Virus record (IMG/VR): IMGVR_UViG_2609459845_000005
Length of the DNA: 5,405 nt
Strand: one strand, 5' to 3'
DNA from: a virus
Lineage: Duplodnaviria; Heunggongvirae; Uroviricota; Caudoviricetes
In this document: in pieces, positions 1,023 to 5,174 of the stretch
Position numbering within the stretch: the first letter of the stretch is position 1
How the letters are laid out: each line of letters begins with the position of its first letter
Position numbers and translations under genes: made by a program
Notes under the pieces: model-generated
Seen by the model: only the letters and a program-made list of their open reading frames with translations
Told to the model about the DNA's origin: nothing
Databases searched by the model: none

Positions 1023-1286
1023 ATGGCAACTTTGACAAAAAAAGAACGGGCATGGTTGAACGAATTACAGGAAGTTCTTGATCGCTGTCCATCACCGAAA
1101 AAAATTGGCTTTTACACCATTGGCGATAAAAGCATTTACCTGTATGACCTACGTCGCATGGATGAAATCATGGAGGCTCTTGATAATCGTTCGTCGATGG
1201 ATTGGTGTGTTGCTGTTCATGATATGAATGCAGGGTTTGATGAAAAGATTTTGTTCCCCTCATCAGTTGAAAGCACTGCGGGTTAA
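1023..1286 (+). CDS. hypothetical protein (87 aa)
   Basis: ATG at 1023 lies 1 nt after the ORF B stop, with AAGGAA at 1010-1015. The track start at 933 would overlap ORF B by about 90 nt with no RBS, so 1023 is preferred. Confidence 0.55.
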   Translation: MATLTKKERAWLNELQEVLDRCPSPKKIGFYTIGDKSIYLYDLRRMDEIMEALDNRSSMDWCVAVHDMNAGFDEKILFPSSVESTAG

Positions 1287-1296
1287 GGAGTAACAC

Positions 1297-1464
1297 ATGA
1301 CCACTATTACCAAAGAACGTATTGAATTGTTCATTAAAAACCCGCTTGAAAACGGGCTTACCCGTGGTGAACAAATGGAACTGGCACGGATTGCGCTGGC
1401 ATCGCTGGAAGCAGAGCCGGTTGTGTTCTGGTTTGAAAAATATCAAGAAGGGGCTACGGCATGA
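1297..1464 (+). CDS. hypothetical small protein (55 aa), paralog of the following gene
   Basis: Absent from the track (below its length cutoff). ATG at 1297 is preceded by AAGGAG at 1285-1290. Translates [55 protein letters not shown], with the TGA stop overlapping the next ATG (gcATGAcg). Confidence 0.45.
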
Positions 1465-1706
1465 CGACTTTTACCAGAGAGCAGTTAATAGCTCACGCAG
1501 AGGAGACTATTGAAGCACAGAGACTGTGCATACCGGGCACAATCGACCATGACATCATCCGCACATATAAGATGGATATTGCTGTTCTGGAAATCGCACT
1601 GGTATCGCTGGCAGCAGAGCCAGCCGGTAAATTGCATGAATACAAACCAGTGGGATATCAGCGTCTGGTCGATGAGTTAACCATGCTGGTAAAGCAGTTA
1701 ACCTAG
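1461..1706 (+). CDS. hypothetical small protein (81 aa), paralog of the preceding gene
   Basis: Track ORF. Shares the N-terminal MTTxT(K/R)E and the IAL(A/V)SL(E/A)AEP motif with the 55-aa ORF. Start overlaps the upstream stop (ATGA). Confidence 0.5.
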
Positions 1707-1801
1707 CAACTGAGGAAAGCGAAGCCAGACTGCAAATTACCGGATAAGGCGATGAGTTATCTGGAGCGGAACGGACTGATAAGCGTGGAGGATATTTTAC
1801 G

Positions 1802-4948: not shown

Positions 4949-4953
4949 TGTTG

Positions 4954-4981
4954 TTGATTTTTCCCGAATCTGTGGTAAATT
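4954..4981 (+). promoter_or_regulatory. candidate late promoter (PR'-like) with embedded Q-utilisation region
   Basis: TTGATT at 4954-4959, 16-nt spacer, extended -10 TGgTAAATT at 4973-4981. It starts 6 nt after the Q-like stop. Confidence 0.4.
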
Positions 4982-5030
4982 CGCTCTAACGATGGGCGTT
5001 TTATGCCTGACGTTAGAAGATTTTTTACAC

Positions 5031-5053
5031 CCCGCCGCCTGGCGGGTTTTTTA
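5031..5053 (+). terminator. strong intrinsic terminator (tR'-like) about 60 nt downstream of the candidate late promoter
   Basis: cccgcc-gcct-ggcggg is a perfect 6-bp GC stem, followed by tttttta. Confidence 0.75.
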
Positions 5054-5174
5054 TGACTGAAATCGCGTCAGTACAGTAAACGCGCTGGTGGCGGTGAATA
5101 CCTGTCTTTCAGCTTGCTGGCTTTTTCGACAAGAGTTATTGGTGTGTCACGTTAACCGGAAAAGGGAAAAAGAC

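Follow-up and report, generated by a model that had tools for sequence, protein, structure and literature searches.

Two overlapping small genes of a lambdoid prophage share a portable N-terminal module whose hinge marks a mosaic boundary

An overlapping pair of short genes

We analyzed a stretch of 5,405 nt (the window) from the IMG/VR virus record IMGVR_UViG_2609459845_000005 (Caudoviricetes), with a focus on two short, overlapping open reading frames (ORFs), ORF A and ORF B. The window represents a lambdoid prophage accessory region of the Escherichia coli/Shigella type, with replication genes on one side and the antiterminator gene Q on the other. The pair and its parts are laid out as follows:

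1053–1413, + strand: cassette replacing the body of an HNH gene, consisting of the body of an 87-aa ORF and the N-terminal module of A
1285–1290, + strand: Shine-Dalgarno-like AAGGAG, read from the sequence, 6 nt 5′ of the ORF A start codon
1297–1464, + strand: ORF A, 55 aa, starting MTTITKERI
1297–1419, + strand: N-terminal module of A (type N00), residues 1–41, with the conserved start patch ATGACCACTATTACC
1390–1419, + strand: hinge of A, beginning at residue 32
1417–1464, + strand: HNH-derived tail of A, which also carries the ribosome-binding region of B
1447–1453, + strand: Shine-Dalgarno-like GAAGGGG, for ORF B
1461–1464, + strand: ATGA stop/start overlap of A and B
1461–1706, + strand: ORF B as it stands in the window, 81 aa, starting MTTFTREQL
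1461–1805, + strand: ancestral ORF B, 114 aa (WP_000206826.1), with N-terminal module, spacer and C-terminal module
Residues 1–54 of B: N-terminal module of B (type N03)
1593–1622, + strand: hinge of B, beginning at residue 45, an imperfect direct repeat of 1390–1419
1668–1805, + strand: C-terminal module of B, cut in the window after its 12th residue
1704–1706, + strand: premature amber codon W82* (TGG to TAG), the changed base being 1705 (G to A)

A preliminary description, made from the sequence alone, had read the two ORFs as tandem paralogues with related starts (MTTIT and MTTFT), a shared IAL-SL-AEP motif and an ATGA overlap; the starts, the motif and the overlap are all present. The proposed similarity is also above chance in pairwise alignment. 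At the protein level, BLASTP aligned A and B with E = 4e-6 (18 of 54 positions identical, 13 gap positions), and the Smith-Waterman score of 56 was reached by none of 5000 shuffles (22.0 ± 3.9, maximum 45). At the DNA level, 24 of 29 nt matched, giving a local score of 38 that none of 2000 shuffles reached (17.2 ± 2.4, maximum 34). The related DNA segments singled out earlier, 1394–1421 and 1597–1624, turned out to be the hinge codons, and the two hinges lie 203 nt apart. The similarity is restricted to the N-terminal 41 residues of A and 54 residues of B. An ORF A protein identical to ours is on record as WP_000207997.1 in RefSeq, labeled hypothetical protein, and in phage vB_EcoS-689R5, where it is labeled ‘EaA protein’.

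A portable N-terminal module and its hinge

Common to A and B is a portable N-terminal module (N-module) of ~40–55 residues, which extends from Met1, in the context MTT(I/F)T(K/R)E, to the hinge IAL-SL-AEP. Profile comparisons place both proteins in one large family of modular accessory proteins from lambdoid/P22-like prophages of Enterobacteriaceae. The family, which the preliminary description did not recognize, can now be named after the N-module of P22 EaA and E. coli YfdT. Four PHROG families carry the module (3323, 60, 660 and 5117): A matched phrog_3323 (E = 1.3e-19) and phrog_60 (E = 4.3e-18), and B matched phrog_660 (E = 1.1e-18, or 8.2e-43 in its 114-aa form). Our own hidden Markov model (HMM) of the module, which had both A and B among its sequences, returned E = 2.4e-20 for A and E = 3e-19 for B. 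By tblastn, A was 86.4% identical to P22 eaA over residues 1–44 and 92.9% identical to HK620 hkaE over the first 42–44 residues, and it matched 100 phage records labeled EaA, DUF551 or Ea22. Its module is only 33% identical to that of B. Scans of A and B with Pfam and NCBIfam found no model that covers the N-module.

Word-index searches yielded 134, 238 and 878 relatives, the last number with a profile of 14–15 module variants. Among 120 listed hits of these 878, plausible source names were all enterobacterial save one, a 586-bp partial record labeled Leptospira. A full HMMER scan of 1.84 billion representatives returned at least 2078 clusters at E ≤ 1e-3, and in nearly all of the best 150 of them the module match started at residue 1. 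The strict hinge motif occurred in 145 of the 240 proteins retrieved in early searches. In A and B alike, the hinge lies within 30–55 residues of the start and is followed by an unrelated segment. The module is under purifying selection, with a pooled ratio of nonsynonymous to synonymous polymorphism (pN/pS) of 0.12 across 42 distinct DNA variants of A’s module type; pairs within this type with a synonymous divergence (dS) of about 0.4–0.5 had a nonsynonymous divergence (dN) of 0–0.01. Given this low pN/pS, the module behaves as a real protein domain.

AlphaFold2 predicted an all-helical protein for B, modeled as the intact 114 aa (39 aligned sequences; the B of the window lacks most of the C-terminal module). 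Helices 6–22 and 30–51 make up the N-module, which is thus predicted to be a two-helix hairpin; residues 52–62 are disordered, and a long helix (63–87) and two short helices follow. The mean predicted local distance difference test score (pLDDT) was 68, with 64–79 for the N-module helices, and the predicted template modeling score (pTM) was 0.35, so that the secondary structure is credible and the packing of the helices is not. The predicted helices put the hinge at the end of helix 2, with a helix-breaking proline ahead of a flexible linker. Searches of PDB sequences with profiles of the N-module and of B returned only chance or coiled-coil-design matches (E ≥ 0.004), and Foldseek of the B model against PDB gave no match at E ≤ 0.001 and otherwise only generic helical hairpins.

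Pfam scans at E ≤ 1 detected neither DUF551 (PF04448) in A or in the 81-aa and 114-aa forms of B nor the Ead/Ea22 family PF13935 in A or B, and Pfam likewise gave no match of A or B to PF04447 (dATP/dGTP pyrophosphohydrolase, DUF550; a MazZ-like domain). Where close relatives of A are labeled ‘DUF551 domain-containing protein, partial’, the name points to a part that A does not have. PADLOC returned no match at E ≤ 1 for A, B, the 87-aa ORF upstream or a 27-aa ORF downstream, and in the literature we found nothing specific on EaA.

The hinge is the point at which the family reassorts. When 114 retrieved proteins were split there, 13 upstream and 34 downstream types appeared in 54 combinations; A’s module type was joined to 27 different continuations, and A’s tail to at least four different N-types. 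Six module types with <45% identity in their middles have almost invariant DNA at the hinge core (CTGGCATCGCTGGAAGCAGAG), third positions included, namely CTG G(C/T)A TC(G/A) CTG G(A/C)A GCA. The residues I, A, E and P at the edges of the hinge are equally conserved, yet their third positions are near-random. The start patch ATGACNACTWTTACC is conserved at the DNA level across the six types, like the hinge core. With the hinge codons numbered 0–9, the downstream segment was significantly linked to third-position variants at codons 4, 5, 6, 8 and 9, with the same trend at codons 3 and 7, and codon 0 was fully linked to the upstream segment and more weakly to the downstream one, a pattern that places junctions inside the hinge. 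The conserved patches are ~20–30 nt long, which is near the minimal efficient pairing segment of Red-beta (23–27 bp; PMC3945230). A Chi-like role of the hinge was considered and rejected, given that GCTGG is present twice and GCTGGTGG is absent.

Junctions, natural recombinants and the surrounding genes

The alignments identify ORF A as a chimera of an EaA-type N-module and the last 15 codons of an HNH endonuclease gene. Positions 1417–1465 are identical (49 of 49 nt) to the 3′ end of a 121-aa HNH endonuclease gene (locus L057), and residues 31–54 of A match the end of phrog_2118 (HNH endonuclease; profile positions 252–275 of 301, E = 0.0021). This match covers the non-catalytic tail only, and the catalytic core (CAYCG...HADH...HPCN) is not in A. 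The full HNH protein matches phrog_2118 with E = 8.8e-57, the intact gene of the Shiga toxin (Stx) phage ArgO145 covering positions 161–275. In ArgO145 the order is DUF4014, HNH and intact 114-aa B, and HNH and B overlap by the same ATGA as A and B. Blastn against this phage showed homology at 773–1052 that resumes at 1414–1886 with 98.9% identity; between 1052 and 1414, ArgO145 has the HNH body where the window has the 87-aa ORF body and the N-module of A. The junction within A falls in a shared CCGGT at or just after the hinge. Such a fusion explains why A is so short, where its tail comes from and why it overlaps B. Long N00-type genes (125–332 aa) occupy this slot, behind the 87-aa ORF, in other prophages.

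The HNH genes themselves are 96–100% identical across 80 viral contigs (L095–L174; see also L085 2243–2949 and L057 451–1568). In 74 of the 80 loci, the HNH stop codon overlaps, again as ATGA, a gene starting MTT(I/F/N)T, and at least 57 of these 74 genes carry a recognizable N-module, of many types. The association may reflect a homing-type cassette or merely a conserved junction. A comparison of window positions 1023–1052 with L085 2243–2269 showed that the 87-aa ORF and the HNH gene (MALTKKQRAEL...) have their upstream DNA and about the first 10 codons in common and then diverge completely, which marks a further mosaic boundary just within a reading frame; P0137 (MATLTKEER + B) resembles a recombinant of such a start with B.

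ORF B is present at 81 aa, as first read, but its native length is 114 aa (1461–1805), the minimal full form of the family, which the G-to-A change at 1705 cuts short. E. coli FDAARGOS_536 is identical to the window at 600 of 601 nt and encodes the 114-aa protein, this change being the sole difference, and the A+B unit likewise has TGG in each of the 22 further loci fetched. The amber allele had no 100% match among 544 E. coli complete genomes matched by a 60-nt probe centered on the site, and an exact search of 185,579 species-representative genomes gave no match. Exactly this 81-aa product is recorded from 15 contigs, in some of which the gene is merely cut off by the contig end; the TAG codon was confirmed in three metagenome contigs, one of them with a different upstream gene. 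In the latter (L092 231–988), the amber B follows a 171-aa gene ending ...QEGSAA*, once more with an ATGA overlap, and we note that whichever gene precedes B has B’s ribosome-binding region within its 3′ end. With two upstream contexts, the amber allele either moved by recombination or arose twice. The stop codon removes 33 of the 45 residues of the C-terminal module, which also ends many mosaic proteins of 160–199 aa; the HMM of this module scores E = 1.5e-34 in intact copies, and it corresponds to the C-terminal part of phrog_660, 924 and 8171. We rejected the idea that the amber codon is read through by design, as the allele is rare and the downstream frame is simply the intact ancestral one.

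Recombinants between A and B are on record. In P0151 and P0152 (101 aa; E. coli and Shigella sonnei), the sequence of A runs to the hinge and that of B takes over after it. The DNA of P0151 equals that of the window minus 203 bp, with the crossover within the shared ATCGCTGG and the hinge of B as the crossover site. Judged from these alignments, the A/B hybrids are 203-bp deletions between the hinges, and the two hinge copies do recombine in nature. P0151 occurs in 13 contigs, and three of the four places shown are the same slot (87-aa ORF, hybrid, hok). In the early-left (ea) region of L088 (2227–2806), a cassette of the 87-aa ORF and the 101-aa hybrid has Ead_Ea22 genes and an integrase as neighbors. 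Its position there, rather than upstream of Q, implies that the cassette moves between two accessory regions. A further variant, P0121, has a 5-nt deletion that fuses A and B end to end.

The A+B unit is widespread: at least 80% of window positions 1200–1800 is covered in 316 E. coli records, and the unit was present in 23 fetched loci (window included) and in the phage isolate vB_EcoS-689R5. Copy number was surveyed in 85 sequences (the window, four annotated records and 80 viral contigs), where the ORFs bearing the module within ~6 kb of a module gene numbered one (54 sequences), two (21) or three (10).

The surroundings of the pair hold the following features:

1–492: 3′ part of IS1, with the insB reading frame to 477 and a terminal inverted repeat ending GGAGTCATTACC at 492
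558–770: small ORF, phrog_4659
803–1021: small ORF, DUF4014
1023–1286: 87-aa ORF (MATLTKKERAWL...), phrog_1714
1802–1885, + strand: unannotated hydrophobic ORF of 27 aa (MTWPEALTTVGIAMAVALVVYSICRWG), with an ATGA overlap with the stop codon of intact B
1927–2252, + strand: complete hok/sok type I toxin-antitoxin locus (sok RNA and Hok frame)

Prophage homology outside IS1 starts at 493, and a matching metagenome contig has PF03400 at the IS1 position; the insertion lies ~800 bp upstream of the A/B pair. In intact relatives, the 87-aa ORF has a third module gene (146 aa) on its upstream side. The sok RNA was located at 1927–2102 (Rfam, 117 bits) and the Hok frame at 2097–2252 (Pfam, E = 2.9e-23), and a stem-loop followed by a T run at ~2318–2346 resembles a hok/sok terminator. 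The window ends with a DUF968 gene, rusA and the Q antiterminator. Related E. coli prophages have the same gene order, and relBE occurs in a related prophage. On the + strand 3′ of the Q gene (4949–5060), a GC-rich hairpin precedes a T run (CCCCGCCGCCTGGCGGGTTTTTT, ~5029–5052); read from the sequence only, this is the expected place for the late promoter, the Q-utilization site and a terminator.

The 27-aa ORF is preceded by GGAGG at 1787–1791, 10 nt upstream, and is intact in 79 of 174 fetched loci, with conservative substitutions; PHROG, Pfam and PADLOC returned no match. To judge from its sequence, it is probably a small membrane protein gene and probably belongs to one translationally coupled unit with A and B, in which case the amber codon in B would uncouple its translation.

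Interpretation and comparison with known systems

We consider it likely that the pair arose through ordinary lambdoid phage mosaicism at a domain boundary, with A a stub made by recombination and B a gene truncated by a nonsense mutation. An EaA-type module was joined, at or just after the hinge, to the tail of an HNH gene that elsewhere sits directly upstream of B. More generally, upstream and downstream segments reassort in frame at the hinge, short conserved DNA patches lie at the start and the hinge of the module, and the exchanges are probably made by Red/Erf-type phage recombination or host homologous recombination on short homology. The hairpin probably serves as a common handle for oligomerization or partner binding ahead of variable effector segments. 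On this reading A would be a handle-only product of uncertain use, and the W82 amber codon would leave B disabled and inactive in the window. The ‘diversifying module’ that the preliminary description had offered as an alternative comes close to these data, to which we add that the portable segment reassorts with many downstream segments.

Several observations weigh against this interpretation. The A+B unit is nearly clonal (seven alleles and three variable sites in the 23 loci), which means that selection on stub A itself cannot be judged. The moderate confidence of the B model leaves the hairpin resting mainly on secondary-structure prediction, and the searches of A, B and the module in PDB sequences, Foldseek, PADLOC, Pfam and NCBIfam yielded no functional lead. 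Within the N00 type, synonymous sites of the hinge are no more homogeneous than the rest of the module, the cross-type DNA comparison draws on six non-independent types, and the linkage tests use few, related sequences. Owing to these few related sequences and the lack of within-type homogeneity, we grade homogenization of the hinge at the DNA level as likely and not as proven. Furthermore, short or frameshifted assemblies are the source of many database proteins, and the clustering into types is crude. Finally, the 24 of 29 nt shared by the hinges of A and B include a perfect core of only 8 nt, below the published pairing minimum, from which it follows that hinge recombination between unlike types must be rare.

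Among the alternatives, the one that survives best, although we hold it unlikely, is that both ORFs of the window are functionless debris of a decaying prophage, with A a leftover open fragment and B a pseudogene. The chimeric nature of A, the premature stop codon in B and the IS1 insertion upstream all fit such decay, and the persistence of a near-clonal unit may reflect recent spread. A nevertheless retains a strong Shine-Dalgarno site, its module is an intact copy of one that evolves under purifying selection elsewhere, stubs with A’s tail exist for at least four N-types, the amber allele persists in two different upstream contexts, and the same A+B unit occurs in vB_EcoS-689R5, which is an inducible phage.

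More speculative, and in our view improbable, is the idea that the N-module with its start patch and hinge forms a dedicated in-frame ‘domain-capture platform’. It would supply a translation start and a soluble helical handle, perhaps aimed at one common host partner, while effectors were swapped by short-homology recombination, possibly stimulated by the adjacent HNH endonuclease in the role of a homing nuclease. If true, it would constitute phage-encoded rapid protein diversification, with a logic comparable to that of polymorphic toxin loci.

We assign a still lower probability to a driving role of the nuclease, whereby the HNH protein is a homing-type enzyme that cuts the HNH-less allele at or near the start or hinge patches, break repair drives cassette exchange, and the window represents the HNH-less allele. 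The many module types behind near-identical HNH genes would suit this idea, as would the finding that the same flanks enclose as a cassette either the HNH body or the ‘87-aa ORF + A module’ segment. Neither a cleavage site nor nuclease activity has a known example here, however, and the P22 ea region, where the stretch examined has no such HNH gene, contains N-module genes that are just as mosaic; the association with MTT genes could simply be conserved junction sequence.

Very improbable, and slightly more so, is the local tandem duplication with divergence that the preliminary description had favored, in which two paralogues would work as a hetero-oligomer and translational coupling would fix their stoichiometry. 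It can draw on the real N-terminal homology, the overlap and ribosome-binding sites, the joint retention of A and B in the fetched loci and E. coli records, and the plausibility of the predicted hairpin as a dimerization element. The origin of A speaks against it: the module is 86–93% identical to EaA/hkaE of other phages and 33% identical to that of B, and the tail, junction and overlap derive from the HNH gene, which argues for juxtaposition by cassette recombination and not for duplication of B. Moreover, B follows HNH or other genes, with A absent, equally often, and the pair has collapsed to a single hybrid gene in 13 contigs. An AlphaFold2 model of the natural A–B fusion P0121 showed no confident packing (pLDDT 53.5, pTM 0.32); its A half had no alignment depth, as MAFFT placed all A homologues on the second module.

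A small toxin-antitoxin or defense-type two-gene module, suggested by the shortness, shared orientation and overlap of two genes in a prophage accessory region with genuine systems nearby (hok/sok, and relBE in a related prophage), was rejected as highly improbable, because PADLOC, Pfam and NCBIfam gave no match and the proteins are homologous to each other instead of complementary, an HNH gene can stand in A’s place, and A and B can become a single gene by fusion.

The 55-aa gene should be annotated as an EaA-module stub fused to an HNH tail and the 81-aa gene as a nonsense-truncated copy of the 114-aa gene. Thousands of enterobacterial prophage genes labeled ‘hypothetical’, ‘DUF551, partial’ or ‘Ea22’ hide one uncatalogued N-module, which would merit a Pfam entry. 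The locus is a compact natural example of mosaicism within genes at a domain boundary, with recombinants caught in the databases (A/B hybrids, module swaps and cassette replacement), and could be a test bed for short-homology recombination. Its interest is modest and lies chiefly in annotation and in the clean natural case of in-frame module exchange that it offers; it does not overturn current understanding.

The closest known relatives of A are P22 EaA (eaa, 317 aa) and homologues from other phages, HK620 (hkaE), ST160 and SE1 among them; the first ~41 residues of these proteins, including IALASL(E/D)AE, are 86–93% identical to A. EaA is non-essential, has no assigned function and lies, like A and B, in a phage accessory region. 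In EaA, however, the N-module is followed by PF04447 (residues 83–179, E = 1.2e-49) and then DUF551, whereas A ends 14 residues after the hinge with the HNH-gene tail; B differs from EaA in both its module type and its C-terminal module. The positions differ as well, eaa being in the early-left (ea) region and the A/B pair between the replication genes and Q.

A further close relative is YfdT of E. coli K-12 (CPS-53 cryptic prophage, 101 aa), which has the N-module and hinge (MTTFTNKELIKEIKERISSLEVRDDIERRAYEIALVSLEVEP) and belongs to phrog_660, like B. Its post-hinge segment is different from that of B and recurs in mosaics such as P0184, which combines B’s N-module, a YfdT-like segment and DUF551. 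In the K-12 locus (L004 7512–8179), YfdT (N-module and middle segment) and YfdS (DUF551) resemble two pieces of such single-chain mosaics. In multicopy, yfdQ and yfdR together with either yfdS or yfdT inhibit replication initiation and suppress the over-initiation of hda-185; YfdR, not YfdT, binds DnaA, and overexpressed YfdT accumulates as a stable small protein (PMC4776307). The view of YfdT and YfdS as a split mosaic may bear on their reported genetic interchangeability (PMC4776307). The yfdQRST genetics offer the only functional lead for the module family, one that concerns K-12 YfdT and not A or B.

Lambda Ea22 and P22 Ead (PF13935), which are mosaic exo-xis proteins, follow the same design, in which a shared N-terminal/coiled-coil part is combined with interchangeable C-terminal domains including DUF551, and they likewise count among the early accessory genes of lambdoid phages (PMC10834534). 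Neither A nor B matches PF13935 by sequence, and ‘Ea22 protein’ labels on N-module genes are loose annotation.

Free-standing homing endonuclease genes, such as the seg and mob genes of T4, are a known type of mobile cassette. The HNH gene described here resembles them as a small intergenic gene that alternates with an HNH-less allele beside a hyper-mosaic gene. The likeness is one of resemblance only, with no target site, cleavage or biased inheritance known for this gene.

Finally, the mosaic joints of lambdoid phages, as described by the ‘linker’ sequences of modular theory and by Red/Erf recombination of diverged DNA, consist of short conserved patches that flank interchangeable segments, as they do here, where the patches are near the pairing minimum reported for Red-beta in size (PMC3945230, PMC2327257). 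In contrast to the classic joints, which swap whole genes, those of the A/B family lie inside reading frames at a domain boundary and give rise to in-frame chimeras.

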